IMG/VR virus record: IMGVR_UViG_3300046001_008198
Coordinates: 61,220 to 125,219 of that record
Length of the DNA: 64,000 nucleotides
From: a virus
Reading direction: 5' to 3' (one strand)
Part shown: positions 4,625 through 58,101 of the stretch, in pieces
Position numbering within the stretch: the stretch's first letter is position 1
Layout: each line of letters starts with the position of its first letter
Program-made: the position numbers and the translations under genes
The notes under the pieces: model-generated
Database searches by the model: none
The model's input: only the letters and a program-made list of their open reading frames with translations
Told to the model about the DNA's origin: nothing

Positions 4625-5058
4625 TACTTAACAATTGTGCGATGGGCTCTTACTAAATAGACTTCACCATTAGGTCTGTCGATAATAGCTCTTCCTTCTT
4701 TTAGGCTACTAAGTGTTGCAGTAGGTTCTCCTAAGAATATTTGAATAGCTGATAAGATTTTATCTGTAGCAGATTTACCATTAGTTACTTGAATTGTGTC
4801 AATGTATGTATCTTCTGGAGAGAATAGAACATCAACTTCAATAACTTTGGATTCTTCTCTTACAGGCATATCTGAGGCAATTGAAAGTACCACAGCATCA
4901 GGAGCTGGAGTGTCGAGAATTTGAGTTGGTTGATCGTAAGATTTAACTGTGAGTGTTTTACCTTTGAGTTGCTTTAATGCTTCTCTGTCGATAAAGTTCT
5001 CTGGGTCCGGACATAATACAATTTTCAATGCTCCGTTGCTGATGATAGTAATTTTCAT
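4624..5058 (-). CDS. hypothetical protein
   Basis: ORF; ATG at 5058 preferred. Confidence 0.7.
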   Translation of the reverse strand: MKITIISNGALKIVLCPDPENFIDREALKQLKGKTLTVKSYDQPTQILDTPAPDAVVLSIASDMPVREESKVIEVDVLFSPEDTYIDTIQVTNGKSATDKILSAIQIFLGEPTATLSSLKEGRAIIDRPNGEVYLVRAHRTIVK

Positions 5059-5068
5059 TGTGTAAGAT

Positions 5069-5536
5069 TTAGAGTATACCGTTGTCGGCAAATGAATAAT
5101 AATTATGTTTTGTTATAATTAAGTGGTCAATAACTTGCATATCAATCATGCTACCAAAGTTTTTTAATTTTCTAGTAAGTGATATATCATTATCGCTTGG
5201 TTTATTTTGACCACTTGGGTGATTGTGAACTAAAATTATAGCGTGACAATTGCTGTTTTTTAATGCATTGCTGAATATAATTTTGCCATCAACTACAACT
5301 CCACTGTATCCACCTTCTCCAATTTTTGAGTAACCAATAATTTGATTAGCTTTGTTGAGATATAAAGTGTAGAAGTATTCGTTTAGATTAATTTCACATA
5401 GTTCTTTTTTGTAAATCTTTCTCATAAAAGCTGCAGTTGTTTCAGGACTTGTCAGGTTTTCTATAGGAAATGTAGTACTTTCTTTTGCTAATGTAAGTCT
5501 TTGTCGAATTACATATTTTACTGGAAGTTTCATCAC
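5069..5536 (-). CDS. radC: RadC-like JAB/MPN domain protein
   Basis: EYFYTLYLN, IILVHNHPSG..PSDND, VIDHLII: complete JAMM motif. Confidence 0.9.
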   Translation of the reverse strand: MMKLPVKYVIRQRLTLAKESTTFPIENLTSPETTAAFMRKIYKKELCEINLNEYFYTLYLNKANQIIGYSKIGEGGYSGVVVDGKIIFSNALKNSNCHAIILVHNHPSGQNKPSDNDISLTRKLKNFGSMIDMQVIDHLIITKHNYYSFADNGIL

Positions 5537-5814
5537 ATTAAGAAATTAATAGCTATTTGCATATCGATGAAGATAAGGTAATTACCCATAGCTAATTCAT
5601 CTTTGTGTCCTACTATTTTAAATAATGGTTCAAGAAATCCTTGATTGTTTTTGAAACCTGTTATTCTTGCAGATCTGATAATACCATTTTGTTTTTTAGG
5701 AAGCATGTAGTCTCTGTGTAGAACAAGAACTTTACTCCCTATTGTCAGGTCTTTCATTGGGAAACTGTATCCTTTTGGAAGATCTGTTTGATTTATTTTT
5801 TGATGTTGTGGCAT
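5533..5814 (-). CDS. hypothetical protein
   Basis: 93-aa ORF with 4-nt overlap to the JAB gene. Confidence 0.65.
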   Translation of the reverse strand: MPQHQKINQTDLPKGYSFPMKDLTIGSKVLVLHRDYMLPKKQNGIIRSARITGFKNNQGFLEPLFKIVGHKDELAMGNYLIFIDMQIAINFLM

Positions 5815-6229
5815 AGTTAATAAATTGTTTGAAAAAGATTCTCATAATTTCATCTTTGCTGTAATTGCTGTCAATGAATTGTTCAAATTCTTTTTGATTA
5901 ATATTAATTTCAATTGTATATGAAGTTTCAGTAGTTTCTCTAGGAGATTTTTCTAAATATTGTGGAAACTTCATTGGTATTTTTGAGCGTAATTCTTCTG
6001 TAAATTCTATAAATTCGGGATGATTCTGAATGAAAAAGACTTCAATGATATTATGGCGAATTGCATCATGGTTTCGATTTAATTCTTTACCAATAGCACT
6101 CAGAGACATTTTTAGTATCCAAAACATATATGCGGCTATATAATGTCGTTGTAATACAATGTCTCTGTTTCGTGCTCTTGTAATTAAACCTTTCTCTTTC
6201 ATGAATCCCCGTAAGTCATCAATTGTCAT
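5732..6229 (-). CDS. DnaA C-terminal-like helix-turn-helix protein
   Basis: RARNRDIVLQRHYIAAY..SLSAIGKELNRNHDAIRH resembles DnaA domain IV (R..IA.AR..AMY..SL..IG..F.RDHTTV.H). Confidence 0.65.
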   Translation of the reverse strand: MTIDDLRGFMKEKGLITRARNRDIVLQRHYIAAYMFWILKMSLSAIGKELNRNHDAIRHNIIEVFFIQNHPEFIEFTEELRSKIPMKFPQYLEKSPRETTETSYTIEININQKEFEQFIDSNYSKDEIMRIFFKQFINYATTSKNKSNRSSKRIQFPNERPDNRE

Positions 6230-6230
6230 C

Positions 6231-6929
6231 CTAATTACATTTTAAGGTTTTAGTTGTTTCAACTGTCCACGGAATATCTGAATGTTCAAAGCAATCTTTG
6301 AGATAGTCAAATTCTTTGAATTTGAATTTGGCATCCCACTCTTTAGCTCTTTCATAACTAGATGTAGCTAAGGCTTTGAATCCGTAGAAATCTCGCATCT
6401 TTTCTACATCTATAGGCTCAATATCAATTTTTGTATCATTGAACTGTAATTGATAAAAAGAATGCAATGGATCCGGTGCGAACAAAGTTTGCTTTGGATT
6501 ACCTAATTCCATAAAGAAAGTTGCAGTATTTAAATATCTACTTGGATTGAGTTGATTGAATGCGGCATATACAGCTAACTGTAACATTGAATTGTTAACA
6601 TACCAATCTGTTACAGGTTTATCCGATGTAATATTTTTATGTTCAATGAATAGAAAAGAACCTGTCATTACTAATCCTTTGTTGTCATCTTTGAAATCAG
6701 GAATAACTTCATCGAATGCGTAGTGAATAAGTACTTCTTGATTGTTGACCGGAAGTTTATATGTTCCTCGCATTTCTAAAAATTGTGATGTAGCTTTAGC
6801 TAAGGCAAGTTCATTTCCTGCAACTTGTGCTGGTGTTACTACTGCTTTATCAGGATTGTTTCTTAGATAGCAGATTTGCATTGCAGACTTTTTGATAAGG
6901 TCGGCAAGGCCAAAATGTTGTGTTTCCAT
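6231..6929 (-). CDS. PD-(D/E)XK (RecB/Cas4-like) nuclease-fold protein
   Basis: YAFDE..FIEHK..LQLAVYA (RecB-type QxxxY); start at METQ after a terminator and the repeated motif. Confidence 0.55.
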   Translation of the reverse strand: METQHFGLADLIKKSAMQICYLRNNPDKAVVTPAQVAGNELALAKATSQFLEMRGTYKLPVNNQEVLIHYAFDEVIPDFKDDNKGLVMTGSFLFIEHKNITSDKPVTDWYVNNSMLQLAVYAAFNQLNPSRYLNTATFFMELGNPKQTLFAPDPLHSFYQLQFNDTKIDIEPIDVEKMRDFYGFKALATSSYERAKEWDAKFKFKEFDYLKDCFEHSDIPWTVETTKTLKCN

Positions 6930-6954
6930 GTGATGATAGTAAAATGAAAAAAGC

Positions 6955-7209
6955 CTACTGAGTTTCAGTAGGCCGAGGTAGTACCCAGTATACATCATTA
7001 GTTTGCTCGTCACGAACTAAAGGAATTTTGATTAATTCTATGTCTTTTGGGTTAATCTTAATGTTTTGATTGGTGCGGTAATAACCTTGTGCTTTATATC
7101 GAAGTGGGAAATCTTTTATGAATTGATCGGCTACTTCTGAGGAGAATTCTTGAGGTGATGCTGTAATATTATCAGTCTTATTGAAGACTATAAAGAGTTG
7201 TTGTTCCAT
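6955..7209 (-). CDS. hypothetical protein
   Basis: Short ORF followed by a terminator hairpin. Confidence 0.65.
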   Translation of the reverse strand: MEQQLFIVFNKTDNITASPQEFSSEVADQFIKDFPLRYKAQGYYRTNQNIKINPKDIELIKIPLVRDEQTNDVYWVLPRPTETQ

Positions 7210-7385
7210 ACAATACATCCTTCTTTTTTGTGCTTTTCATACATAAGCTCTGTTGTAGATCTTACAATGAATTTACGGTGAGGTTTCATTTTAAGTTTGT
7301 TGACATCAAAGCTTTCATAGCCTGGTAAACAACTAACTAAATGTTCAATATCGATTACTTGTTTGCGATTGGAATTTCTGATCAT
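7188..7385 (-). CDS. hypothetical protein
   Basis: 65-aa ORF overlapping its neighbours. Confidence 0.55.
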   Translation of the reverse strand: MIRNSNRKQVIDIEHLVSCLPGYESFDVNKLKMKPHRKFIVRSTTELMYEKHKKEGCIVWNNNSL

Positions 7386-7675
7386 ACTTCTTCTAAAATT
7401 TCAGCTTCTAAATAAGCAATTATTTCTTCTTCATTGTTAGGATCTATGATTGCAAATCTATGACATGAGTAAAAACTATATGGAAAATGTGCATCGGTTA
7501 ATGTGAGTTCAGCAAGTGTGAAACCCCATGTATTTTTTCCATACTGAGTTCTATGCAACTTAGTTGCTGTATAAACTCTTTTATCTTTAACCCATAGGTA
7601 GTCAGGAATTTCAACAGGTTTTTTTGCATCATCAATACATACGACCTTGCATGGTAATTTGATTTCTTTAGCCAT
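7382..7675 (-). CDS. hypothetical protein
   Basis: 97 aa, VVCIDD..Y.....F...RF pattern. Confidence 0.7.
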   Translation of the reverse strand: MAKEIKLPCKVVCIDDAKKPVEIPDYLWVKDKRVYTATKLHRTQYGKNTWGFTLAELTLTDAHFPYSFYSCHRFAIIDPNNEEEIIAYLEAEILEEV

Positions 7676-7952
7676 TGAATTCTTTTTTTATTTCAGCAAT
7701 AAGTCCGCGTCTTTCAAGGACTGCATGCATTGGATGTATTTGTTCCCAAGATCCCATTTTAACATGGGCTTTTCCTGAATTGTGTGCAATTAGTACTATT
7801 TGTTCAACTTGCAATGGTTGGAATTGGGTTGCTTCGGTTACAGCACCGGCTACATATTCGAATGAATGTACATCGTCATTATGTAGAAATAAATGACATT
7901 CTGCAAGATGAGGATCGATCTCGGTGAGTTCTTTATAAGAGGTCTTGTTCAT
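7668..7952 (-). CDS. clpS: ClpS-like ATP-dependent Clp protease adaptor
   Basis: LFLHNDDVHSFEYV, LIAHNSGKAHVKMG, RRGLIAEI: N-degron pocket residues N-D-D and H are conserved; Bacteroidota-type. Confidence 0.85.
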   Translation of the reverse strand: MNKTSYKELTEIDPHLAECHLFLHNDDVHSFEYVAGAVTEATQFQPLQVEQIVLIAHNSGKAHVKMGSWEQIHPMHAVLERRGLIAEIKKEFNG

Positions 7953-8358
7953 GAGCGAGTTTTGGGTTTTCAAAATGAATTTTATCATGGCAGTTACGAC
8001 ACGAGGCTTTAAAGAATTTTACCTCAGTTGTATTAATACCACGACCTTTCGAGTGATGCAAATCAGTTGCGGATCCAGTGCAACCTACCCAATTAATTTC
8101 ACAGTAAGGATGTTTATTGAGATATTCTAATCTAACTTTTAGATACTCAGCTTTAATCTTTGCTTGTTTTGGTGAAAGTTTTTTAATTGGGGTTGGTGGT
8201 TTTACTGTAGGCTTTTTTACATTTGATGCTTTGTCACTCATTTGAAGCGAGCAACTATAACTGCAGCAAGGCAACCTGTCTCCATCTATTGTTACATATT
8301 TGAAGACAGGTCTATTGTTACCACAACAAATGCACTGTTTATGTTTTCTAGCAATCAC
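7933..8358 (-). CDS. HNH endonuclease-like protein (Ref/NinG-like Zn-binding)
   Basis: CICC..CSYSC N-terminus; CE..GC..ATDLHH..CRNCHDKIH. Confidence 0.7.
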   Translation of the reverse strand: MIARKHKQCICCGNNRPVFKYVTIDGDRLPCCSYSCSLQMSDKASNVKKPTVKPPTPIKKLSPKQAKIKAEYLKVRLEYLNKHPYCEINWVGCTGSATDLHHSKGRGINTTEVKFFKASCRNCHDKIHFENPKLAHEQDLL

Positions 8359-8924
8359 ATTGCAGCAAAGTTAGAAGGTAATAGTTTACTTTCCAAAAGT
8401 TTTTCGATAATCATACCTCTGGATATTCCTAATTCCTTGAATGAAAGTGTGCATTTAAAATTTGAATCTGTTGTAATGTCTGAGCTTAATAACTGCTTGA
8501 ATAATACAGCAGGTAAGATTTCAGGAGTTTGCTTTTTAATTTGCACAGAAACTTTAGAAGTGTTTTCGTATGAGCGCACGATTTTGAGGTCATTACTTCT
8601 TTGACTTGAAGCTGATGATAGTAAATCATTCGCCACATTACTGAAAGCTTTCAATCGGAGATTCATTATCTCTTGCTTGAAGATGTTAATTACATCTTGA
8701 GCTTTTCTGTGAGTTTTTGCTATACGAGATTTCTTTGCAGAATTCATGGTATATAATTCTTCTGGTGTGTAAACAGAGAGTCCGAACAATAAGCGATCGT
8801 AAAGATGCTGCTGTCCGTTTGATAGAGATACTGGTCCATAAGACTGTGCTAGTTTTTGGTACTCAGTTCTGATAATACGAGTTTTAGTCAGTGACGCTAA
8901 GTCCTGAAGAGAATTTGTTTTCAT
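8355..8924 (-). CDS. hypothetical protein
   Basis: 189-aa ORF. Confidence 0.8.
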   Translation of the reverse strand: MKTNSLQDLASLTKTRIIRTEYQKLAQSYGPVSLSNGQQHLYDRLLFGLSVYTPEELYTMNSAKKSRIAKTHRKAQDVINIFKQEIMNLRLKAFSNVANDLLSSASSQRSNDLKIVRSYENTSKVSVQIKKQTPEILPAVLFKQLLSSDITTDSNFKCTLSFKELGISRGMIIEKLLESKLLPSNFAAM

Positions 8925-8945
8925 ATAAATTTGGATTAAAGAATT

Positions 8946-9200
8946 TTATTCATCATTGAATAGAGCATCGAGATTAATCTCTACTGTTGGCTCGTCTTCA
9001 TCTGTGAGAAATTCAAGGGTTTGGTGTTGTGATGGATCTTCGATGTCTTCTTCGATGTGTTCATCAAGACTTTCGAAAGGGTTGGATGAGGCTCCTCCGA
9101 TGTTCATGCCATTTAGGACTTTCAAATCATCATCGTCCATAGCTAAAAAAGCCTCTAAGGACATGTTGATTGATTTACCATTTGGACATTGATACCTCAT
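8946..9200 (-). CDS. small acidic hypothetical protein
   Basis: MRYQCPNGKSI..., D/E-rich. Confidence 0.75.
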   Translation of the reverse strand: MRYQCPNGKSINMSLEAFLAMDDDDLKVLNGMNIGGASSNPFESLDEHIEEDIEDPSQHQTLEFLTDEDEPTVEINLDALFNDE

Positions 9201-9237
9201 TGTTGCAATAATTATATATAATAACAAAAATAAGTTA

Positions 9238-9681
9238 TTAAAGTAGTTCTATAGGCTTACAGTAGTATTGTTGAATCTTTATAATTGAAGATATTACTAA
9301 ACCATCTACTATTTTAGTTGGAATTTTAACAAAAACATCCTGATTTAGAACTGAGATTTCATGTATTTCCACTACAACATAACCATTGATATCAATCAAC
9401 TTGTTGTTTTTGTGGTAGTTCATTATTTCTGTATTCCAAAGTGATTTAATTTTAATCCTAACATTTACTCCAGGAGCAAAGATGCATGGATTACCATTAA
9501 CTTTGATTGGTTTTTCAGGATTGTTTAGAAAGTTCATGAACATATCTCTCTGATCACTTCCCATTTCTGAAAGATTGAGTGCTAATTGTTTAATAATTAG
9601 TTCTTTTTTTTCTGGAAAGTTCATGAACATTTTGATAATATCAATATCTCTTTGTAAAGAGTCTTCGTTGATTCTGCTCAT
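9238..9681 (-). CDS. hypothetical protein
   Basis: 147-aa ORF. Confidence 0.7.
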   Translation of the reverse strand: MSRINEDSLQRDIDIIKMFMNFPEKKELIIKQLALNLSEMGSDQRDMFMNFLNNPEKPIKVNGNPCIFAPGVNVRIKIKSLWNTEIMNYHKNNKLIDINGYVVVEIHEISVLNQDVFVKIPTKIVDGLVISSIIKIQQYYCKPIELL

Positions 9682-9683
9682 AA

Positions 9684-9821
9684 TTAATTGATGTAACCGT
9701 ATTGAGCCATTAGTGTTGGATCAACCCCTGTGAGTTGGCAATCTAAGATGAATTCTTCATGCATTTGTGCCAATACATCATCTTGGGTCATTGGCTTTTG
9801 TTCTGTTGTTGGCTTTTCCAT
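9684..9821 (-). CDS. small hypothetical protein (45 aa, below track cut-off)
   Basis: MEKPTTEQKPMTQDDVLAQMHEEFILDCQLTGVDPTLMAQYGYIN*, fills the gap after a terminator. Confidence 0.65.
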   Translation of the reverse strand: MEKPTTEQKPMTQDDVLAQMHEEFILDCQLTGVDPTLMAQYGYIN

Positions 9822-9841
9822 TTGTGTAAATTAAGAGAATA

Positions 9842-9872
9842 AAAAAGGGAATACACGATGCATTCCCTTTTG
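9842..9872. terminator. intrinsic terminator (bidirectional)
   Basis: aaaaaagggaat-acacgatgc-attccctttt. Confidence 0.7.
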
Positions 9873-9923
9873 TCAATAAATTAAACTTCGTCAAGTCTAA
9901 GTTCTCCCTCCATGCAGGGGGTG

Positions 9924-10157
9924 TCACCTAGTTGGATGTCTCTCCTTTCTGCTGTAGTTAATCAATCCTTCTGTTAAGATTGTTATCAAGTTCCCTTCAT
10001 AAATATCTAGAGTATAGATTCGGGGTGTTTTAACAACAATTTCAAAGAATGGTATTGAGTTACAGAAAGCTATATTAATCGTGTTGTTGTTTTCCGATTG
10101 ATAACTTGCTGAATAAACTACAACAAGAAGGAGCAACATAGTTAGTGATGCTCTCAT
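9924..10157 (-). CDS. predicted membrane/secreted small protein
   Basis: Hydrophobic N-terminus MLLLLVVVYS. Confidence 0.5.
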   Translation of the reverse strand: MRASLTMLLLLVVVYSASYQSENNNTINIAFCNSIPFFEIVVKTPRIYTLDIYEGNLITILTEGLINYSRKERHPTR

Positions 10158-10186
10158 CTTATATTTTTTAGATTGGTGTAAATATA

Positions 10187-10726
10187 TTAATTATTTGCAA
10201 TAAATTTATAATAGGTTCGATTTTCACTTTTGGTGTAGACAGCGTAGTCTTCTCCAACAATGATATATTCATTCTGATTATAATAAATTGTACCGTTATT
10301 TCCTAAATCAGGAATAATGTCAATGTAAGGCATGGTATAGGATCCATTTCCATCTATTCTTTCTATAATGAGGTATTTAGTTCCATCAGTTTCTTGGTAA
10401 AAGCTGACATGGCTGTATTCTCGAAGGATATTATAGAGTGGTAGATTAGGTTTGCTGATAATTAACCATCCTGAATTGCTTTTGCTGTAAATGTGTGTTA
10501 AAACTTCATTGTTTACAACATAGACTGTTGTTTTGTATTCAATCACAAGTGTTGTTAATGATGTTTTAGTAATTTCTACGGGTACTTCTGCAGTACTGGA
10601 ATTGAAATACTTGACAACATACAGGTCTTGAATTGTAACTTGTTCGGTTGGACAAGCATCTATCGGAGTTGCTTGAACTGTTGTTGCGAATAATAGAATC
10701 GCACAAATTGCAAAAAATCTTTTCAT
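10187..10726 (-). CDS. secreted protein with signal peptide
   Basis: MKRFFAICAILLFATTVQA: classic Sec signal with AxA-like cleavage. Confidence 0.75.
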   Translation of the reverse strand: MKRFFAICAILLFATTVQATPIDACPTEQVTIQDLYVVKYFNSSTAEVPVEITKTSLTTLVIEYKTTVYVVNNEVLTHIYSKSNSGWLIISKPNLPLYNILREYSHVSFYQETDGTKYLIIERIDGNGSYTMPYIDIIPDLGNNGTIYYNQNEYIIVGEDYAVYTKSENRTYYKFIANN

Positions 10727-10972
10727 GGGTTTGAAGATTTAAAGATTAATACTAAATAAATAATTGTGATATATATAGGCTTTGAGGCCAAGCTGATTGA
10801 ACAGCGTGTCTTGGGTTTGATGATAGTAAAAGTTTTTAATGTGGTACTTTACCGCCTTTTAAGGTAAACCAAATGGTGAACATTGGAATGAGGTTGATAC
10901 AAAATCTTTTATGGTATTGAGAATAATGTACACCTATCCAGAAAGCTCGCCAATTGAATAACATTCCTAATT

Positions 10973-11293
10973 TCATTTGCTTTTCTTTTTAGATTTTAGG
11001 ATGAGAAATTCTGTACACTGAATGACTGTCATAGATGGATCTGAATAATCTAATCTACCTTCAATGATTACTTCCATTTGAGGAACTAGCGTATCATTCA
11101 TTATTTTAGCCATTTTTAATTTGGCGCATACATTGTGTGTTTGGATATTAGTAATGGTTGAAATCTTATTTTTAGTTTTGAATGTTTCAACTGTTTCTAA
11201 TTCCATAGATAATAAAGGACCTTTTTTAAGGTCTGTGTACATCATGGATTTTACTGTACCTATCAGAGATACTTTGTTTCTTAATGGCTGCAT
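10973..11293 (-). CDS. SSB-like OB-fold protein, no acidic tail
   Basis: LRNKVSLIGTV..ETVETFK..HNV..EVIIEGRLDYS matches the SSB core. Confidence 0.7.
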   Translation of the reverse strand: MQPLRNKVSLIGTVKSMMYTDLKKGPLLSMELETVETFKTKNKISTITNIQTHNVCAKLKMAKIMNDTLVPQMEVIIEGRLDYSDPSMTVIQCTEFLILKSKKKSK

Positions 11294-11294
11294 A

Positions 11295-11798
11295 TCAAAT
11301 TTTTTTAAGTAAGTATTCTCCTTGTTCTGTTAATCTTGGTTCAGGAACGGCATAAACTTTATCTCCACAAATATCCATCACAAATTCAACTTCAATTTCT
11401 GTTGGTTGCATAACATGTCTTTCCAAGTAACCTTTATAAGATTTTTGAGCTTCAGGATAAGTTTTATCTTTTGAAATCCATCCAGCATAAAAAGCATTTA
11501 ATACTTGTTCCAAAGTAAACACCTTGTCTTTATTCAACTCCATTGCTTTGTTGAAGCCTATCTTAAAGCCAATTTTTTCACGAGTTTTAAAATCATGAAC
11601 ACGAGTTTTTTCATCAAGTGTTTCAAGTTCTCTAGCCAACTTCTCAACATCAACTACTCCCATTGCTTTAGCAAACTCTTCTTCACAATTTTGTTTGGAT
11701 AGTTTTTTATCTCTATTATCTCTTGAATCAGTAGATGCTATTGCCCAACTTTTATCAACATATAAGTAGAAAATATCATCTTTCTTAATTAGTTTCAT
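11295..11798 (-). CDS. hypothetical protein
   Basis: 167-aa ORF. Confidence 0.75.
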   Translation of the reverse strand: MKLIKKDDIFYLYVDKSWAIASTDSRDNRDKKLSKQNCEEEFAKAMGVVDVEKLARELETLDEKTRVHDFKTREKIGFKIGFNKAMELNKDKVFTLEQVLNAFYAGWISKDKTYPEAQKSYKGYLERHVMQPTEIEVEFVMDICGDKVYAVPEPRLTEQGEYLLKKI

Positions 11799-11818
11799 AT
11801 GATTGTGTATTAGTTGTT

Positions 11819-12028
11819 TTATTTTTTTAGTGCATCATATAGTGCTGCTGTGAACAAACACGATAATAAAAATGCTAATGCAAAGAATCCTATGCATGCT
11901 CCTCGACCTTCTGGACTCCATTGTGAAATGTTGAAAGTTACAAAGTAAAAACTTACACATAAATAGATCATAGCTATTAGGATTACAAATATTGCAATAT
12001 TTGTTTTAATTAGTTGGTGTATACTCAT
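11819..12028 (-). CDS. two-TM membrane protein
   Basis: Two hydrophobic helices separated by NISQWSPEGR. Confidence 0.7.
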   Translation of the reverse strand: MSIHQLIKTNIAIFVILIAMIYLCVSFYFVTFNISQWSPEGRGACIGFFALAFLLSCLFTAALYDALKK

Positions 12029-12156
12029 TTTGCTTGGGTTTAGTGGATGATAGTAAATAATAAACCCGGACCTGTATGAGATCCGGGAATTTTCTAGTGT
12101 GCTAGAGCAGTACCTACGAAATTAAATATTTATGCTAGATATTTGGAAAAATATCG

Positions 12157-12230
12157 TGATTATGATGGGAGTCGAACCCACACCCCTGATCCGTGTACCC
12201 AGACCCGCACTACCCCAGTGCTACACAATC
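12157..12230 (-). tRNA. tRNA-like gene with aberrant anticodon arm (anticodon not assignable)
   Basis: Acceptor GATTGTG/CATAATC+A73; D stem GCAC/GTGC; T arm GTGGG-TTCGACT-CCCAT; anticodon stem GGTCT/GGATC with 8-nt loop GGGTACAC; no encoded CCA. Confidence 0.7.
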
Positions 12231-12307
12231 GCCATATCAGGAATAGGTAAACCTGATAATGTAATACCAATGAAGCAGGGGGTTGCCTGACTTACACACT
12301 GGTGATA

Positions 12308-12565
12308 TTATAATGGAAATTCATCTTTGTCTTTCCACAGCTGAACGATATCTGTTGGTGATTTGGTAATCACTGTGTCAAATAATAGTTTAGCTAATGA
12401 TTCGTTGTTACCTGACAAAGTAAGGAAATCTTTTTTGGTGTGAGACTTTCCTGATTTATCAATATAACATACTAAAGTTTCGCAACTGTTGTAAGCATCT
12501 ACTGATTTGAAAATAGATTTAGCTTTAACAGTGCAGTGTTGTGGTGTTTGTGTAAGAGTATTCAT
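12308..12565 (-). CDS. hypothetical protein
   Basis: 85-aa ORF. Confidence 0.7.
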   Translation of the reverse strand: MNTLTQTPQHCTVKAKSIFKSVDAYNSCETLVCYIDKSGKSHTKKDFLTLSGNNESLAKLLFDTVITKSPTDIVQLWKDKDEFPL

Positions 12566-12583
12566 TGTTGGTTGGTTTTGTGA

Positions 12584-12901
12584 CTATTTGAATCTACCGC
12601 CGTGATCTCGCTTTGCTAACTTTTTGAGAGCATTGTCTTTGTTCAAGGCTGATATATACACACAGTCTGGTTTCATTACTACTTTTTTGTTTGTAGATCC
12701 AGAAGAATCTTTGTTAACTACATAATCGGTTTTGGTAAACTCCGCTGGTTCAATTGTACCTGTTTCTAAATTTATTTCAAATAAAGAATGACCTCGGTGT
12801 GGATGAATACTACCAATATGTTTTTCCTGAAACTTCTGTTCTGTTTCTTTGGAGATATGAATCTCTTCACGGACTCCTAACTCTATTTCTTTACTGTTCA
12901 T
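12584..12901 (-). CDS. hypothetical protein
   Basis: 105-aa ORF preceded by TACCTTTG (TAnnTTTG) at 12906-12913. Confidence 0.75.
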   Translation of the reverse strand: MNSKEIELGVREEIHISKETEQKFQEKHIGSIHPHRGHSLFEINLETGTIEPAEFTKTDYVVNKDSSGSTNKKVVMKPDCVYISALNKDNALKKLAKRDHGGRFK

Positions 12902-12928
12902 GATACAAAGGTAAATAAAAATTAGTTA

Positions 12929-13213
12929 TTACAAAATTATGATGTCAGTGGCAATGACTTTACCTTTAGCAAGATAACCTTCTACAGCTAAATCAGATCC
13001 GATTCGTAGGCGATTAATAAATTTTAGGTATATGTCTCCTTTGAGTACAACTCTGTGTTGATACTTTTTTGTGATAGGTTTACCATTTCCATCCAACTGT
13101 AGAGATTTAGTTTCCAGGATAAAGCAAGTGCCTACTTTTTTAATACCTTCTTCGGTGGTTTGTTTAGGCTCAAGCGTTTTGAGAAGCTTGCCTATTAAGT
13201 TTACATGATTCAT
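12929..13213 (-). CDS. second SSB-like OB-fold protein, truncated
   Basis: MNHVNLIGKL..FILET..QHRVV..GSDLAVEGYL. Confidence 0.65.
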   Translation of the reverse strand: MNHVNLIGKLLKTLEPKQTTEEGIKKVGTCFILETKSLQLDGNGKPITKKYQHRVVLKGDIYLKFINRLRIGSDLAVEGYLAKGKVIATDIIIL

Positions 13214-13223
13214 GTGAAATGTT

Positions 13224-13427
13224 TTACTTGGTTGTGGTTAACTCTTGTGGTTGAACTTGGGTTCTTTTAACACCATGTTCTTGTTCTATTGCAAAAAGAA
13301 TCTTGTTGGCTTCATTCATTCTGTCAACGGCTTTCATTCCGATTGCCATGTGATGATTGAATGTGTTGGCTGCATCAACCCATCTTTCATTTGCAAGTTC
13401 AAATTTTAATCTGGTTGTGTCGTCCAT
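13224..13427 (-). CDS. hypothetical protein
   Basis: 67 aa; ATG overlaps the TTTACTATCAT motif. Confidence 0.7.
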   Translation of the reverse strand: MDDTTRLKFELANERWVDAANTFNHHMAIGMKAVDRMNEANKILFAIEQEHGVKRTQVQPQELTTTK

Positions 13428-13493
13428 GATAGTAAAAGTTAAAGGTTAATAAATTACCCCTCTGCATCTCAGTTGTAGGCTGTTATACCCTAA

Positions 13494-13858
13494 GTTAGCA
13501 CCAATACTATTGAACCAACCTATAAACAAGACGTTCAGCTTCTTTGCCTTTAACGTGCTTATAAATAGTTAATTCAGTTGGTGTTCCATTGTTATCAGCC
13601 ATTCCGCTAATTGAAACAATTTCACTAACTTCAATCACATTATTAGGGTCTGTACCTTCATAAACTATAAATGGGAAAGGCAAAGAACCTGCCTTAAATT
13701 CCTTAATTTCATCATCAGTAAAATAAGTACTGGTGCTAACATCGGTTTGGCAAAATTGCCGTTTTGTTTCTTCGTTTGACATTTTATCTAAATTTTAAAG
13801 TTTGTACTACTAATGAAGTTTTGTGTTCGGCAACTTCGCCAAGCCGAGAAACGTTATC
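13494..13858 (-). mobile_element. integron-cassette-like element (attC-like hairpin, ORF, inverse core site)
   Basis: Core GTTAGCACCAGTAC (13727-13740) vs inverse core GTATTGGTGCTAAC (13494-13507), 13/14 complementary; upstream 20-bp imperfect inverted repeat 13742-13761/13828-13847 bounded by TAAC and GTTA. Confidence 0.6.
13507..13782 (-). CDS. cassette-borne hypothetical protein
   Basis: 91 aa, MSNEETKRQFCQTDVSTS; first 14 codons lie in the attC-like hairpin. Confidence 0.75.
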   Translation of the reverse strand: MSNEETKRQFCQTDVSTSTYFTDDEIKEFKAGSLPFPFIVYEGTDPNNVIEVSEIVSISGMADNNGTPTELTIYKHVKGKEAERLVYRLVQ

Positions 13859-13869
13859 ATTAACTATTT

Positions 13870-14080
13870 AACATAGTTCACTTACAACTGCTCACCCTTG
13901 GGAGCTGATTAACTCATCTAGCTATATGCTACATTAGTTTCGGTTAATCAGGTGGTTTCACATCTTATGTGGCTGGTTTCCACTACATCCCGTGCACTAG
14001 GAATAAGAAGTCTTTATATCCACGTGAGAATGGTGCATTAATAATTTGACGGCTCCCGTATTTCAGAGAGCCGTTCAATA
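13870..14080 (-). ncRNA. candidate structured non-coding RNA
   Basis: Intergenic; hairpins ACGGCTC..GAAA..GAGCCGT, CTGATTAAC/GTTAATCAG, GCTC..GAGC; no ORF >=60 aa. Confidence 0.35.
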
Positions 14081-14157
14081 ATTGGGTTTGTAGTACTTGC
14101 TACAAATATGTCCATCAACGCTAGGTTGGATAAAGCCGAAGCTATTTCATGATTTTT

Positions 14158-14361
14158 TCATAGATTTGTTCTAGTAATAATTTTTTCTGTTTGTCCCCAT
14201 GAAAATTCAGAGGGATTGAGATAATCTAATTTGAATGCTTTTTTGAATACATCTGCAATCATTACTTCATCGAATTCGTCTTCGAATGTTACTTCAGATT
14301 TATTAACATCAAGGATGAATGTTATCAATGATGCTAAATCAATTAATACAAGTGTTATCAT
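14158..14361 (-). CDS. hypothetical protein
   Basis: 67 aa, 10 nt downstream of the motif. Confidence 0.7.
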   Translation of the reverse strand: MITLVLIDLASLITFILDVNKSEVTFEDEFDEVMIADVFKKAFKLDYLNPSEFSWGQTEKIITRTNL

Positions 14362-14400
14362 AATTGGGGTGGATGATAGTAAATACTATTAAATATATAA

Positions 14401-14697
14401 CTATAGTACTTGATAAATGAATAATGGATATCTCATTTCACCGTGTACTGAATCTATTTGAAAGAATATAGCCATTCCTAAGAAATTACATTCTGTAGAA
14501 TCAAATGCTTGACCGTCTGGAACTATCTTAAATTTGAATATTCTATGGTAGATCATATCAGGATTGTGAGAGAAATAGATTCGGAGGTCAAGGTTAACAC
14601 GTTCTATACTTAGAATTTTGGCATCCGATGGTAAGTTCACTTCATGAGTTTTTTCACATGGAAACTTAATTGTGATATATGTTATGATCGTATTCAT
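14401..14697 (-). CDS. hypothetical protein (common small phage family: LP..AKILS..F.IV..G....FLG)
   Basis: 98-aa ORF. Confidence 0.7.
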   Translation of the reverse strand: MNTIITYITIKFPCEKTHEVNLPSDAKILSIERVNLDLRIYFSHNPDMIYHRIFKFKIVPDGQAFDSTECNFLGMAIFFQIDSVHGEMRYPLFIYQVL

Positions 14698-14708
14698 ACA
14701 GTTACGTT

Positions 14709-15068
14709 TTATAAGAGTCCTATCTTTTCAAGGAAATCTTTGTTAGTAAATCGATGTTCAAAGAATTCAATTACATAGACATCTTCATCAGTAATAAGAT
14801 GGTCAATGGCTGTGATATGGTCGCCGTCATTGTATTGGCGAAGAAGATTAAGCATTGCATCAACAAGGTAATCGATGTGTTCATACGTAATGAATTGTCG
14901 AGCACTCTCGATAGCTACTGCCTGAGCAAAATACTTGTTAATATCCATTCTGTGGTAGTCAAAGTCTTTCTCAGAATTATCAGCGTCAAGGATTATTAGT
15001 CGTTTGATAATGTTTGGAAGCTCTGTAGCACTGAGGATGTGTGTGAGGTAGAGATTATTTGGTGTCAT
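14709..15068 (-). CDS. hypothetical protein
   Basis: Start at MTPNN, downstream of the motif. Confidence 0.65.
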   Translation of the reverse strand: MTPNNLYLTHILSATELPNIIKRLIILDADNSEKDFDYHRMDINKYFAQAVAIESARQFITYEHIDYLVDAMLNLLRQYNDGDHITAIDHLITDEDVYVIEFFEHRFTNKDFLEKIGLL

Positions 15069-15408
15069 TATTTGGTGGATTAAATGATAGTAAATACCAG
15101 TATATTTTTTCATCATGCATTCCATGTAAGTCGAGAATGCTGAATGCTGTTTGGTGGTAATTGATTATTGGTTCAGATGATATTCCGAATGGAAATCTTT
15201 CATTTTTGTAATCGTAATAAGTTCCAACCCAATTTTCATATTTGAAAATATCATGAGTGCCCTGACTATAATCAGGACCTTGAGTGATAACAAATACATT
15301 TAGATCCGGACGATATGTTGATACCCAGATATGTTTTAATGTTTCTGATTTATCTGTAGTAATCAATAACTTCACACCAGGTTTTGTTTCAAAAAGGATA
15401 TGTGCCAT
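15055..15408 (-). CDS. paralog family protein A
   Basis: HILFETKPGVKLL...YWYLLS. Confidence 0.75.
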   Translation of the reverse strand: MAHILFETKPGVKLLITTDKSETLKHIWVSTYRPDLNVFVITQGPDYSQGTHDIFKYENWVGTYYDYKNERFPFGISSEPIINYHQTAFSILDLHGMHDEKIYWYLLSFNPPNNDTK

Positions 15409-15411
15409 AAT

Positions 15412-15747
15412 TTATGAGATTAAGTACCAATAGAATATATCTGGATGTACAAAATCATATCCTTTGAGAATTGATTCTAACGATTCATGTTTATAATATG
15501 TTGATCCTGCTACAGAATTGTAAATAATAAACTGAGTATTGATTCTGTTTGGTGTACCTGTTGTACTAAGAAATGCATCAATAACATTAGGTTTTGTTAT
15601 AGTCCACAGTGTTTCTTCATTTGTATACAACACAGTTAATTTGTCATAATAGAAGAAAGTTGAGAATGCAAGCACTAGATTAGGACATTTTTCTTGAACA
15701 ACAAGCAAGCGTACTCCGGATTTAGGTTCTACGATAATTCGTTTCAT
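15412..15747 (-). CDS. paralog family protein B
   Basis: RIIVEPKSGVRLL...FYWYLIS*. Confidence 0.75.
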   Translation of the reverse strand: MKRIIVEPKSGVRLLVVQEKCPNLVLAFSTFFYYDKLTVLYTNEETLWTITKPNVIDAFLSTTGTPNRINTQFIIYNSVAGSTYYKHESLESILKGYDFVHPDIFYWYLIS

Positions 15748-15759
15748 AGGCGCTGGGTG

Positions 15760-16074
15760 TTATGATAGTAAATGCCAATAGGTCTCACCTTTGGATGTGA
15801 ACATATAATGATTTAGCATTTCAAGTAGGCATTCACTTACAGTTGCACAATAATCTGATGGTTCACGGATGTTTATGAAGTTACTGTCCCACGGCAATAA
15901 GTTAACACCTTTTACGGTAATGAGGTAATGGAATTCTGGTGGTGCAAAGTAGAGTGTGAAATCTTCAGGGCCTGTAAACATTTCAGTAGTGAATACATGA
16001 GGGAGCATTTTTGATTTAGTCTTTGTTAGCAACAATCGCACTCCTGGTTGTGGTTCAATTATGAGGTGGTTCAT
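15760..16074 (-). CDS. paralog family protein C
   Basis: HLIIEPQPGVRLL...YWHLLS*. Confidence 0.75.
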   Translation of the reverse strand: MNHLIIEPQPGVRLLLTKTKSKMLPHVFTTEMFTGPEDFTLYFAPPEFHYLITVKGVNLLPWDSNFINIREPSDYCATVSECLLEMLNHYMFTSKGETYWHLLS

Positions 16075-16083
16075 AAGGCTTGG

Positions 16084-16440
16084 TTATTTATCTTCTTTCA
16101 TTATATGAATTTCATCGATGGCGAATGTAATGGATGGATCCATCTTACTTTTGATTGTTAATTCAGCCATTTGTTGAGCATCGAAAGCATCAGTAGCTTT
16201 GACAAAGAAGTCTGCCGTGTATGTAACTTTGAATGATTTAAGTTGACGTAGTTCTTTGATGTATGCATAAACTGTTTTGAATTTTTGCTTACGCTCAATA
16301 GGGTCTAGTATTTTGTCAACTGTTGTAGTGATTGATGCGTCACCATTTGTATATAATATAATACAGGCTCTTTGTAAAAAGGGAAATTTCTTTTTTATCT
16401 TGGTGACTAAGTTCTTGTGTTCAATTGGTGAGAGTTCCAT
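16084..16440 (-). CDS. hypothetical protein
   Basis: 118 aa; motif directly upstream of ATG. Confidence 0.75.
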   Translation of the reverse strand: MELSPIEHKNLVTKIKKKFPFLQRACIILYTNGDASITTTVDKILDPIERKQKFKTVYAYIKELRQLKSFKVTYTADFFVKATDAFDAQQMAELTIKSKMDPSITFAIDEIHIMKEDK

Positions 16441-16501
16441 GATGATAGTATTAATAGGTGAAAATTCAAAAGCGGCAGGTACTAATCTTTCTGAATTACT
16501 T

Positions 16502-16636
16502 CTATACTATAAGAGATAAAAGAAAAGATCTGTCATGCATGTAGTCTTCAAAGATAGAGTCTTGAGGTATGAGGTCATGTTCTATGCAATGTTCGAATAG
16601 CTCTGTAGTGGTCCAATCGTAGTAGGGAGTGTCCAT
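16502..16636 (-). CDS. small acidic hypothetical protein
   Basis: MDTPYYDWTTTELFEHCIEHDL... Confidence 0.55.
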   Translation of the reverse strand: MDTPYYDWTTTELFEHCIEHDLIPQDSIFEDYMHDRSFLLSLIV

Positions 16637-16934
16637 ATAGTAATATTTAAATTGAATAAATGGTCGGTTTGAGTAGGTATGAAGAGGTGAGGAATATAGG
16701 GATAGGTTGTCCCTCAGTATCACACAAAGAGAAGCCAAAACCTCGCATTATTGTAATGCTATGCTTAATAAAGAGGATTAAAGTATCAAATATCCCCGGG
16801 TGGAGACTAACTTTGAAAAGATTAATCCCTTATAAACATTGAGAAGTATGTAAAAGTATACTATTGGATTCCTAAAACAGTACAAAAGGAGATATTGCTA
16901 CCTCCTAATGCATTGTTCCTCTCTTTACACAAGG

Positions 16935-17123
16935 TTATTGTTCATCTAATTCGATATAACCTAGTATGAATAGGTCATTTGTATTAGCTGAAATACTGAT
17001 TGATTCTGTTTCTACTTCTTCAATCATAAACTTAATAGCGAATTTCTTTGCTATTGCTTTGAATTGGTAGTACTCCTTTAAACTAAGGTGTATGATTGTG
17101 GTAATGATTTCTGCAGTTTTCAT
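16935..17123 (-). CDS. hypothetical protein
   Basis: 62-aa ORF with A-rich leader. Confidence 0.65.
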   Translation of the reverse strand: MKTAEIITTIIHLSLKEYYQFKAIAKKFAIKFMIEEVETESISISANTNDLFILGYIELDEQ

Positions 17124-17464
17124 AAGCTTATTTATTGTGGTTTATAGCCTTATTTAATTAATTATGAGATAGTTACGCATTGTAACTTAAAGTAATAGTT
17201 AAACCCTTTCACGGTACAGGCATGGTCTTGCTGGATGAGTGATGTATTAGTAGTTGGGCTTGTAATACGTAAGGGTTGCTTGTAATAGGATAGTAGCTTG
17301 GGTCCTGGAGTATGAGATCATCTCTGTTGTTTCGGCTTTCCTGATTACAGGCGGGGTGATGATAGTAAGGTAGCACATTCTTGATTGGGCCTTCTTCGAA
17401 GAAGCTAGTAGCTAGGGTCCCGAAGGATGTGAAGGTCAGGAAGTGCATACCATGGGACTGTAAT

Positions 17465-17615
17465 TACTACGAGTGCTGTTCCGTGTTAGCACGGGTGAGC
17501 ATTGGGTGTAGAGACTGTTGCCAAGATCGCATGTATGTCAACCCTCGGAGAGCATAGGTTGCCTAGGCGGCAGGACGAAGTCCTTCTAAGAGCCGACACC
17601 AAGTTGGGAGTGAGT
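17465..17615 (-). ncRNA. candidate structured non-coding RNA
   Basis: GC-rich intergenic segment; TTGGTGT/ACACCCAA, CAACC/GGTTG, TGCT-CCGTG(ctaa)CACGG-AGCA, AGGAC/GTCCT. Confidence 0.4.
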
Positions 17616-17635
17616 AGCGATGATAGTAAAACAAA

Positions 17636-17651
17636 GCCCCCGTTAAGGGGC
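17636..17651 (-). terminator. intrinsic terminator followed by the motif
   Basis: gcccc-ttaac-gggggc tttgtttt actatcatc. Confidence 0.8.
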
Positions 17652-17677
17652 GATGTTCAGTACCAAGGATATCTGTG

Positions 17678-18445
17678 TTACTCAATAACCAAACCTCCGA
17701 AGGCTTTAGTCTTTGTAGTAGCATGTACTTCCATTTTTGCAATAGCCTCTGATTCTCGTTGTTTAATCTGCTCTTCAGGAGAAAGTTGAGCAAATGATTC
17801 ACGAATTTCTTGGTTTGCAAGAGTCAATGATAGTAAAGAAGGCGAAGCCGAAGTCAAGATGCTCGGATTACCTTTCAATAGATTATCATCGTATTTGATT
17901 GGAACAGTACTTCCGACAAAGGATTTACCCTTAGCCTCAAACGCTTTGATTAATTCATCAAGGTTTGTGAACACCTGTTCAACACGAAACACTTTATCTC
18001 CAAAGCGAATTGCGATTCTACGGCGACCGTAGTTCCAATTCTCAAGATGTCCTTTCGGATTCTCAGGAGTAATGTGTTTATCAAATGTGTAAGATTTCTT
18101 TTTCTCAGGATTTTGTCTGTGATAAAGTAATCTTTCAGTATCAACCTTCGCACTAGCAACAACACAATGCACCATAGGTACAGAGATATTTGATTCAGTA
18201 ATGAAGTGTTGAATATCCACACCTTCAACAGTAATATCGTCACGGACAATATCAGAAGTGTTAGGTGTTTCAACATCAGCGCCCCAACCTAAAGAAGTAG
18301 CCAAAGCATTAAGCTTTGCTTGAACTAAAGGGTTGTTAGATGCTGACGCACAAAGAGTTGTCAATGCAGTTTTAGATTTAACACCTAAAGCTAATTTAAT
18401 GTCCGATGACAACGGACAAGCCTGTAAAAATTCTGAAGCATTCAT
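17678..18445 (-). CDS. hypothetical protein
   Basis: 255 aa from MNASEF; followed by a terminator. Confidence 0.8.
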   Translation of the reverse strand: MNASEFLQACPLSSDIKLALGVKSKTALTTLCASASNNPLVQAKLNALATSLGWGADVETPNTSDIVRDDITVEGVDIQHFITESNISVPMVHCVVASAKVDTERLLYHRQNPEKKKSYTFDKHITPENPKGHLENWNYGRRRIAIRFGDKVFRVEQVFTNLDELIKAFEAKGKSFVGSTVPIKYDDNLLKGNPSILTSASPSLLSLTLANQEIRESFAQLSPEEQIKQRESEAIAKMEVHATTKTKAFGGLVIE

Positions 18446-18744
18446 ATGAATGAGTATTTGGTAAAAAGAAGATGTCTTTAAGTAGGCACATCGATTCCTT
18501 GATACAATTCGTGTATGTATCAAACAGAGATATATAAATTAGCGAGCGAAGCCAAAATATCTCGAAGAGATTCAATCTAAGTCAAAGGTTGAGAGTAGTG
18601 AAAAACACTTGATTACCGAGCACCAATTAAGGGACAAGACAATCAAGTGTAAACCTAAGCTGAAACTATGAAAACTGAATACAATCCAATCTATGTCAGA
18701 GGTGAGGATGAGGGTTGATGATAGTAAACAAAACTCCCCGTAGG

Positions 18745-19034
18745 GAGTTGTTGGGTTTCTGCCGTGGCCCACACGCCTATCGAGGTTTGTTTCTTGGGAG
18801 CTGACTTGACCTCGTAGGTACAGTAACATTCAGCTCTTGCATTCCGACAACATTGTCAGAGAAGATTTGGTTGGAGTTCCCCTCTCAACCATGTAGTCGC
18901 AGTGTTCTCAGTGGTTATGATAGATGAGCTCTGCGCGCACCCTCTATCCTGTCCTCGTTGTGCACCATACCATATCGGTCCATCGAGTCAAGGATACTCA
19001 ATCGGTGGTGAATATGTCGAACCAACAACAACTC
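18745..19034 (-). ncRNA. candidate ~290-nt structured RNA with H-type pseudoknot
   Basis: Closing helix GAGTTGTTG/CAACAACTC; pseudoknot stems GAGCTGA/TCAGCTC and CCTACGAGGT/ACCTCG(A)TAGG; hairpins at 18843-18860 and 18869-18890; UACG terminator at 18732-18749. Confidence 0.6.
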
Positions 19035-19108
19035 ACAATATAATCCAATCTAAGTCAAAGGTTGAGCGAAGCGAGAGTGGGTGTGATGAGCGATGATAGT
19101 AAAAGAAA

Positions 19109-19122
19109 AGTCCCGAAGGACT
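19109..19122 (-). terminator. UUCG intrinsic terminator followed by the motif
   Basis: agtcc-ttcg-ggact tttctttt actatcatc. Confidence 0.8.
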
Positions 19123-19806: not shown

Positions 19807-20150
19807 TAATACAGTAGTATATAATAAGACCATTATACACAGTGAGTGAGCAGTGAGAGTCTGACGAGCGAAGCGAGTCCAAGTGTTGAGTGTGAGTGAG
19901 TGAGAGGTGAGACATTCATTCTCAGGAGAGATCATCAACAACCCCTCCCCCCTCTGGTTTTTTTTCTTGAATAATTAGCTGAATATTTCCAAGCTCCTGT
20001 GGTCAATGGGGGGTGGACCCCTCTTGCTTCAATGGGTGGGGTGGTTTATGTAAGGACCATCATCACATCATTATACATTATTTTTATCAATTCCGCATGA
20101 CCCTCAACACACCCTTACATAATATTTCACCCAATTCCGCGAGAATTAAA
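19807..20150. other. strand-switch non-coding region; candidate origin or genome terminus
   Basis: Divergent gene orientation; GTGAG runs; GAGCGAAGCGAG at 19866-19877; C- and G-homopolymer tracts at 19940-20045. Confidence 0.45.
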
Positions 20151-57159: not shown

Positions 57160-58101
57160 ATGAAGAATAAACTACTCCGTTATAGAACATTGGATCAGTT
57201 GATAACTGAGATCAAAAGTGATTTATATTCGTATGACATGAATGGTGAGATTCGTGCTGAGAATTTAATCAAGGTTGTTAAAACAATTAATGCGAAACTT
57301 GGGTTAAAGATTCATAAGACAAAGAATGCTGTTTTGGAAATTGAGAACGGGTGGGCTAAACTACCGGAAGACTTTCACATGATGAACTACATGTACCTAT
57401 TGGGTAACTTTGAAGTAATAGCTCCTGTAATACAAGGGACGCATGTAGAAGAAGTTCCTGTAGGTTTCCCCGTGTATCAACCAGGAGTAGATCATATTGA
57501 TATTTGCGCCGTTCCTCCTGTATGTCCACCACCTGTAGTACCTGAATGTAATGCATGTGAGAATCCACAACCGTGTAATTGTAATACTACATGCAACACT
57601 TGGATTAACTGTAAGGGAGAAGAGATGACTTTAATTCAAAAGCTTAAATTCTCATATAGGAAGTGGACAGAGTTTTACAGAATACGACTTGTTGGTGAAC
57701 CTAGCTTTATGGATCCGATGTGTCCGAATAAAACATGGCAGGCGAAGAACACCGCATATCTAACTGATGATAGTAACATCCGATGTGGTGTTAACTCGGG
57801 TCAACTTTATATCAACTACGAGGGGATGATGGAAGATGAAGCGGGAAATCTATTAGTCTTAGACCACGACCTTGTTAATGATTATTATGAGTACGCTTGT
57901 AAAGACCGTTTCTTTGAGAACAGAGTGCTTAACAATGAGCCTGTGAATCAAATGGCTATACAACTTGTGAAGACAAGTTTACGCGAAGCGAAGAATTTGG
58001 CGCAAGGTGTAGCACGAATGCCTGAATTTGATGAGATTCAAAACATTTGGAAGTTGAACAGAAAGGCTAGGTTTACAAAATATTATGCAATTTTTAGATA
58101 A
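57160..58101 (+). CDS. tail ring/tubular protein (P22 gp4-like position)
   Basis: 313 aa; AKLPEDF, LYINY.G..EDE.G.LL..DH; synteny. Confidence 0.55.
   Translation: MKNKLLRYRTLDQLITEIKSDLYSYDMNGEIRAENLIKVVKTINAKLGLKIHKTKNAVLEIENGWAKLPEDFHMMNYMYLLGNFEVIAPVIQGTHVEEVPVGFPVYQPGVDHIDICAVPPVCPPPVVPECNACENPQPCNCNTTCNTWINCKGEEMTLIQKLKFSYRKWTEFYRIRLVGEPSFMDPMCPNKTWQAKNTAYLTDDSNIRCGVNSGQLYINYEGMMEDEAGNLLVLDHDLVNDYYEYACKDRFFENRVLNNEPVNQMAIQLVKTSLREAKNLAQGVARMPEFDEIQNIWKLNRKARFTKYYAIFR

Follow-up and report, generated by a model that had tools for sequence, protein, structure and literature searches.

crAss-like phages belong to the most abundant known viruses, and their earliest transcripts are produced by an injected polymerase. 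For T4-type phages, Arbiol et al. reportedly described Promoter-early stem-loop (PeSL) cassettes in 2010. In the crAss-like Cellulophaga phage phi14:2, the head of the early arm contains two long intergenic regions whose expression exceeds that of most genes already at the first sampled time. The respective RNAs (g004-g005 and g005-g006) remain abundant and stable and were named long non-coding RNAs without an assigned function (bioRxiv 10.1101/2020.03.07.982082).

We find these early non-coding regions of phi14:2 to be GC-enriched compared to their flanks. Furthermore, the g005-g006 region is a tmRNA (NC_021806 4031-4500, plus strand) that is absent from the record's annotation: RF00023 scores 46.0 bits given a cut-off of 47 (E 2.6e-16), and ARAGORN calls the gene with the tag GSSVQKLAMVA*. 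That one of the phi14:2 'lncRNAs' is a tmRNA provides a concrete starting point for explaining the early RNAs of this phage. The other early non-coding region contains an element of ~110 nt (NC_021806 3256-3364) that is ~75% identical to intergenic DNA of the Cellulophaga phages phi4:1 and phi17:2 (L166 701-800; L167 701-798), which are unrelated to phi14:2. There, the element is located upstream of a hypothetical gene near a replication initiation gene. We see it as a possible host-specific RNA or regulatory element that is common to different phage families.

Here, we investigate a GC-rich segment at the head of the leftward early arm of another crAss-like phage. Judged from its sequence, it is a plausible orphan early non-coding RNA, i.e., a candidate rather than a discovery.

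Genome context and anatomy of the unit

The analysed window is the whole stretch of 64,000 nt, i.e., bases 61220-125219 of a 125,219-bp IMG/VR record that is rated complete and has a GC content of 34.6%. Its TerL, portal and MCP map to crAss-type PHROGs. TerL shows 24% identity to gut crAss phages and 50-56% identity to ~600 environmental contigs. Given the PHROG matches of terminase, portal and head proteins as well as these TerL identities, we assign the genome to a distant, uncultured crAss-like phage. The minus strand carries the genes left of ~19,800, and the structural genes point rightward. The leftward arm starts with small orphan genes, followed by a Dda-like helicase and conserved genes; hardly any early-arm genes are held in common with the closest complete relatives. 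The candidate RNA unit, which is free of ORFs, is on the minus strand at the head of this early arm, ~800 nt from the strand switch.

The strand-switch region (19820-20110) shows CTCAC/GTGAG runs, copies of CTCGCTTCGCTC as well as opposed C- and G-tracts (CCCCTCCCCCCTC, GGGGGGTGGACCCC). Outside of the window, a 3,833-aa ORF (G000:C1:16434-27935, plus strand) was considered as virion RNA polymerase, which we rejected. It has a DYDID motif at residue 2285 (DFDID in phi14:2 gp66), and its last ~150 aa show matches to YbiA-like PHROGs as well as PDB 2b3w; no sequence-level match to the solved gp66 polymerase (6VR4) was obtained.

The original prediction had placed a GC-rich segment of ~290 nt between a copy of a 23-bp repeat and a cUACGg terminator. 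All of these elements are present in the minus strand and are listed in the following from right to left.

19109-19122, minus strand: upstream intrinsic terminator (AGTCC-TTCG-GGACT plus T-run) that closes the preceding unit (ORFs 19754-19186)
19092-19103, minus strand: copy of the promoter-like TTTACTATCATC motif that marks unit boundaries in the leftward arm
between 19103-19092 and repeat copy A, minus strand: C/A-rich stretch of 33 nt
19036-19058, minus strand: 23-bp repeat copy A (TTGACTTAGATTGGATTATATTG), directly upstream of the 5' helix of the RNA; candidate promoter
18745-19035, minus strand: GC-rich, ORF-free body of the candidate RNA, 291 nt
19026-19034, minus strand: 5' strand of the closing helix, 9 bp (GAGUUGUUG), duplex energy -10.8 kcal/mol
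18868-18891, minus strand: hairpin with 5-6 outer and 3 inner bp; pair probability of the outer 5 bp 0.99
18843-18860, minus strand: 7-bp hairpin with loop AUGU, pair probabilities 0.79-0.97
18776-18836, minus strand: candidate H-type pseudoknot (S1 18836-18830/18804-18798; S2 18818-18809/18786-18776)
18759-18774, minus strand: second possible 3' partner, paired with the 5' strand (19031-19014) in the MFE fold; rich in G.U and terminator-compatible
18745-18753, minus strand: 3' strand of the closing helix, 9 bp (CAACAACUC), with a 5-nt overlap with the 5' arm of the terminator
18724-18749, minus strand: c(UACG)g intrinsic terminator, 7-bp stem plus U-tract, pair probabilities 0.9-0.99
18717-18728, minus strand: next TTTACTATCATC copy, immediately 3' of the terminator
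18600-18699, minus strand: next unit with repeat copy B (18699-18677), an ORF-free stretch of ~75 nt and a long hairpin plus U5
18585-18563, minus strand: repeat copy C, followed by ORF281
17651-17636, minus strand: terminator 3' of ORF281, followed by a TTTACTATCATC copy
17200-17616, minus strand: second GC-rich, ORF-free island, located after ORF281, terminator and motif

The terminator at 19122-19109 isolates the RNA unit from the preceding ORFs. At the other end, the unit is closed by AACTCCC-TACG-GGGAGTT (18749-18732) followed by TTTTGTTT. In between, the body has a GC content of 0.47-0.49 compared to 0.346 for the genome.

Two further ORF-free stretches are found nearby. The ~75 nt between repeat copies B and C (18600-18676, minus strand), which contain a 13-bp hairpin followed by U5, are a second small RNA candidate. 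The second island (17200-17616) has a GC content of up to 0.55 and is divided by a further motif copy at 17368; its MFE z-score is -1.4 and it is without Rfam match. We rejected the idea that both GC islands are paralogues, since their common part is restricted to the 27 promoter-proximal nt.

The boundary motif is strongly biased in number and orientation. Within the window, we observe 15 copies of TTACTATCAT, all of them on the minus strand, where 0.38 are expected; genome-wide, the TTTACTATCATC/TTACTATCAT motif has 17 copies. The TTACTATCAT copies span positions 5042-19102 (minus strand), plus one at 57767-57776 (minus strand), and are commonly located just 3' of an intrinsic terminator, with a start codon following within a few bases. 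We thus consider TTACTATCAT a promoter-like boundary motif that cuts the early arm into cassettes. The 23-bp repeat stands at the head of four consecutive units, i.e., besides copy A there are related copies at 19801-19779, 18699-18677 and 18585-18563, with uneven spacings of 743, 359 and 114 bp. On inspection of the sequences, neither the TTTACTATCATC motif nor the 23-bp repeat matches the sigma-70 or Bacteroidota consensus spacing. A promoter role of either element is putative.

The same repeats could be read on the DNA level, i.e., as part of an origin, a regulator-binding array or a packaging signal next to the strand switch instead of an RNA gene. All four repeat copies have the same orientation and are within 1.3 kb of the divergence point, and CTCGCTTCGCTC as well as GTGAG tracts are nearby. 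However, the copies are irregularly spaced and each of them heads a terminator-bounded unit, as promoters would. Furthermore, the 290-nt body itself contains no repeats, and replication origins are usually AT-rich. We therefore regard a DNA-level element as improbable.

Another GC island of the early arm was identified as a tRNA (12157-12230, minus strand; RF00005 with 37.8 bits given a cut-off of 29, 500 nt scanned alone), with a terminator and the TTTACTATCATC motif downstream. That is, GC islands of this genome can be RNA genes.

Coding potential and searches for related sequences

In agreement with the original prediction, the segment has no credible ORF, since only micro-ORFs fit. We trained a codon model on 79 long ORFs, for which the three minus-strand frames score -0.29, -0.51 and -0.55 bits per codon, compared to +0.20 to +0.30 for the neighbouring genes in frame. 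No frame of the segment matches a Pfam or PHROG family.

A protein-coding function would have to rely either on a micro-ORF (20-38 aa) or on a frame of 124 codons in which TGA encodes tryptophan. In fact, the minus-strand frame from 19098 has three stops only, all of which are TGA, and a TTG-initiated ORF of 38 aa is found at 19031-18915. Against this, the codon model is negative in every frame, family matches are missing, and the TGA=W frame passes through both the promoter-like motif and the repeat. In addition, TGA is the stop of 14/97 long ORFs, for which reason we rejected a code-4 reading of the segment, and code 11 leaves the late genes intact. A coding function is thus very improbable.

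No family of Rfam 15 matches the segment. There are no matches at the gathering threshold for the whole window, no relevant match at E<=10 over 3.2 kb, and a separate scan of 411 nt was likewise empty at E<=10. The sensitivity of scanning small stretches is supported by the tRNA above, which was found in this mode while being missed by both the whole-window scan and ARAGORN. No tmRNA was identified by ARAGORN on the segment and the genome or by RF00023 on the whole genome.

Similarly, no homologous sequence was found. Using blastn, the comparison of the segment with 50,697 phage records was empty or yielded chance matches, and no homolog was found among 25 further relatives, where recurrent 16-20-mers are located in coding sequence and attributed to chance. 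Neither did nhmmer provide a homolog in three complete relatives and phi14:2. Using the neighbouring 150-aa gene as an anchor, no homologous locus was retrieved. Searched as exact words, 17-21-mers taken from four RNA parts as well as the 23-bp repeat yielded nothing beyond chance, neither in IMG/VR nor in metagenome contigs or 185k species genomes. Covariance model R1 matched only itself (371 bits) over 30 relatives and the fetched loci. An all-against-all comparison of the GC islands of four genomes revealed no related island, and a search for antisense targets within the genome provided only 12-mers expected by chance.

Other readings were rejected as well. The crAss001 early operon contains a TROVE protein (PMC8375218), which prompted the idea of a Ro/Y-RNA; this genome has no TROVE gene. 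A MITE is discarded given that the 9-bp inverted ends come without target-site duplication and no other copies were found. Finally, ORF281 was considered as partner protein; it has no family and a poor Atlas model. ORF281 itself is an orphan that, used as an anchor in IMG/VR and 5.8 billion proteins, matched only itself.

Predicted fold and its relation to the terminator

As originally described, GAGTTGTTG (19034-19026) and CAACAACTC (18753-18745) are perfectly complementary, such that both ends of the body can form a closing helix. The two predicted hairpins at 18860-18843 and 18890-18869 are present as well and, like the terminator, near-certain in the nested ensemble (p 0.9-0.99).

For the proposed H-type pseudoknot, both stems and all loops are found in the sequence. 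Stem S1 is formed by GAGCTGA/TCAGCTC (7 bp, duplex energy -9.9 kcal/mol) and stem S2 by CCTACGAGGT/ACCTCGATAGG (10 bp plus one bulge, -12.9 kcal/mol). Together with loops of 11/4/11 nt, this provides the two crossing stems and groove-spanning loops of an H-type fold. Within the nested ensemble, S1 and S2 each have a probability of ~0.5, which is expected for two good crossing stems under a model that forbids knots. We regard this knot as a possible, though unproven fold.

To relate these observations to chance, a perfect terminal helix of at least 9 bp between the first and last 30 nt was found in 6/3000 dinucleotide shuffles, and an H-type knot with two perfect stems of at least 6 bp and loops of at most 15 nt in 8/300 shuffles. 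Both tests are post hoc and thus only suggestive, since the helices had been selected beforehand by the original prediction. The global folding signal is weaker. For 316 nt, we obtain an MFE z-score of -1.31, while the 291-nt body shows -1.78 (p about 0.04), with a similar value for the plus strand (-1.47). The ensemble diversity is not significantly altered (z-score -0.86). Taken together, the evidence for an excess of structure over chance is mixed, and the folding energy is marginal.

These values have to be weighed against a serious rival, namely that the segment is non-functional filler. That is, GC-rich foreign or decayed DNA would be caught between two terminator-plus-promoter modules and perhaps be transcribed without a selected fold; the flanking modules could drive the shuffling of cassettes. 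The weak global folding signal fits this explanation, as does the fact that the segment is an orphan in every searched collection. Furthermore, the module is present as direct repeats on both sides (19078-19115 vs. 18703-18740, 71-82% identity to the reference copy), and the high GC content could result from a foreign origin instead of structure. Since ORF281 is an orphan too, the region appears to be subject to fast turnover. On the other hand, the 9-bp terminal helix is located exactly at the unit ends and is rare among shuffles, and the segment shows no trace of a reading frame or protein family. Compact phage genomes rarely retain ~700 nt of ORF-free, terminator-framed DNA within the region expressed first, and comparable regions of phi14:2 are highly expressed. 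We thus consider filler somewhat unlikely, with a sizeable minor share of the probability.

The closing helix had also been proposed to compete with the terminator and thereby to form an antitermination or attenuation switch that controls the early arm. Under such a cis-acting mechanism, the 5' strand pairs with 18753-18745 and blocks the terminator such that the polymerase reads into the early arm. The layout is formally that of an attenuator. That is, the 9-bp helix covers 5 nt of the 5' arm of the terminator (18749-18745), and the 5' strand, which contains GUUGUUGUUGG, has two possible 3' partners (18774-18759 or 18753-18745). Mutual exclusion therefore holds for the 9-bp register as originally proposed, while this register has near-zero probability in the full-length ensemble. 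In the MFE fold (-95.9 kcal/mol), 19031-19014 pairs with 18774-18759 and the terminator is kept. This alternative closing helix has 16 pairs, several of them G.U, and the terminator stem gains three pairs. When the 9-bp register is forced, the terminator is abolished and the energy rises to -91.1 kcal/mol, i.e., it is 4.8 kcal/mol worse.

The switch was thus not supported: energetically, the terminator-compatible closing helix is preferred, and the next gene is behind its own promoter-like motif. In detail, ORF281 comes only after a new TTTACTATCATC copy, repeat copies B and C and a second terminator. Since the downstream units have promoter-like repeats and terminators of their own, readthrough would control little. 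In attenuators, riboswitch platforms and processive antitermination RNAs such as HK022 put, an upstream strand can likewise pair with the 5' arm of a terminator. In contrast, the present unit has no regulated gene within the same promoter-less unit, favours the terminator-compatible fold, matches no cis-regulatory family of Rfam, and is with its 290 nt long for a leader that has neither a leader peptide nor a known aptamer. Overall, we assign only a small chance to a cis-acting switch.

Interpretation and comparison with known systems

Given terminators on both sides, promoter-like motifs of its own, its GC-richness, the missing coding signal and the rare end-to-end helix, we read the segment as a stand-alone early non-coding RNA unit with paired ends at the head of the leftward arm, with a probability of roughly 50%. 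With regard to the new structured phage RNA of the original prediction, the stand-alone non-coding RNA is thus the best reading. The pseudoknotted 'structured RNA' is unproven, since no homolog was found in the searched collections and the thermodynamic signal is marginal.

According to the stand-alone reading, transcription would start from the TTTACTATCATC motif, the 23-bp repeat copy A or both, either within these elements or right behind them, cross the GC-rich body of ~290 nt and end at the c(UACG)g terminator. The product would be a compact RNA whose paired 5' and 3' ends could provide protection from exonucleases, and which would hold several stable hairpins and possibly the H-type pseudoknot. 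Such an RNA would act early and in trans, where its most plausible role is to bind or decoy a protein of the host or the phage, and might be a counterpart of the abundant and stable early RNAs of phi14:2.

If real, the RNA would be an orphan addition to the known but unexplained early RNAs of crAss-like phages. If it is expressed, it would provide a second, independent example of an early RNA, with clean boundaries and a testable fold, and would point to non-coding RNAs as a regular component of the crAss-like early programme. A broader and rather doubtful generalization is that crAss-like phages start the infection by flooding the host with stable, structured and lineage-specific RNAs from the first units of the early arm. 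This set would comprise the 290-nt pseudoknotted RNA, the tmRNA of phi14:2, the tRNA-like gene of this genome and at least two more of its ORF-free units. Proteins of host translation, RNA surveillance or defence would be taken over or decoyed by these RNAs.

Among known RNAs, tmRNA (RF00023) shares several properties with the candidate. In both, the 5' and 3' ends are joined by a terminal helix, UGGUUCGAC just 3' of the candidate's 5' strand resembles the tmRNA consensus cuGGaUUCGAC, and phi14:2 has its tmRNA at an equivalent place. We nevertheless rejected tmRNA identity, as both ARAGORN and RF00023 are negative at E<=10. In contrast to tmRNA, the third pair of the candidate helix is G-C instead of G3.U70, and a T-arm of the GGUUCGAAUCC type is missing, i.e., the GGGCCACGGCAGAAACCC before the 3' strand comes without the 5-bp stem and 7-nt T-loop. 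Moreover, the three-frame translation of the candidate contains no tag reading frame that ends in a hydrophobic tag.

The organization of the arm is similar to PeSL cassettes, where a repeated module of terminator hairpin and early promoter likewise parts small orphan units within a hyperplastic early region. By analogy, the terminator and promoter-like module of the present phage could mediate modular shuffling. Both systems differ in motif sequence, phage group and polymerase, and some of the cassettes studied here are without any ORF.

Comparable units are found in relatives, since the early arms of G001 and G002 open with short ORF-free, terminator-bounded units behind repeats of their own. 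In G002 (L082 626-832), the repeat AACCCCTTTTTTT is followed by such a unit of ~170 nt, and in G001 (24160-24045, minus strand) a ~40-bp repeat (AAGCCTGCGGCAGCTTTAGATACAGCTT...) is followed by one of ~100 nt.

Finally, the phi14:2 parallel of this putative RNA is a positional analogy and not a homology. The candidate shows no sequence or model similarity to phi14:2 (nhmmer, covariance model R1; NC_021806 1-9000), whose regions are longer (~690 nt each) and include a tmRNA that the present genome lacks. What both loci have in common is that they stand at the head of a crAss-like early arm, lack ORFs and are GC-enriched compared to their flanks. In both, two non-coding stretches flank a single ORF, which are here the two islands around ORF281.
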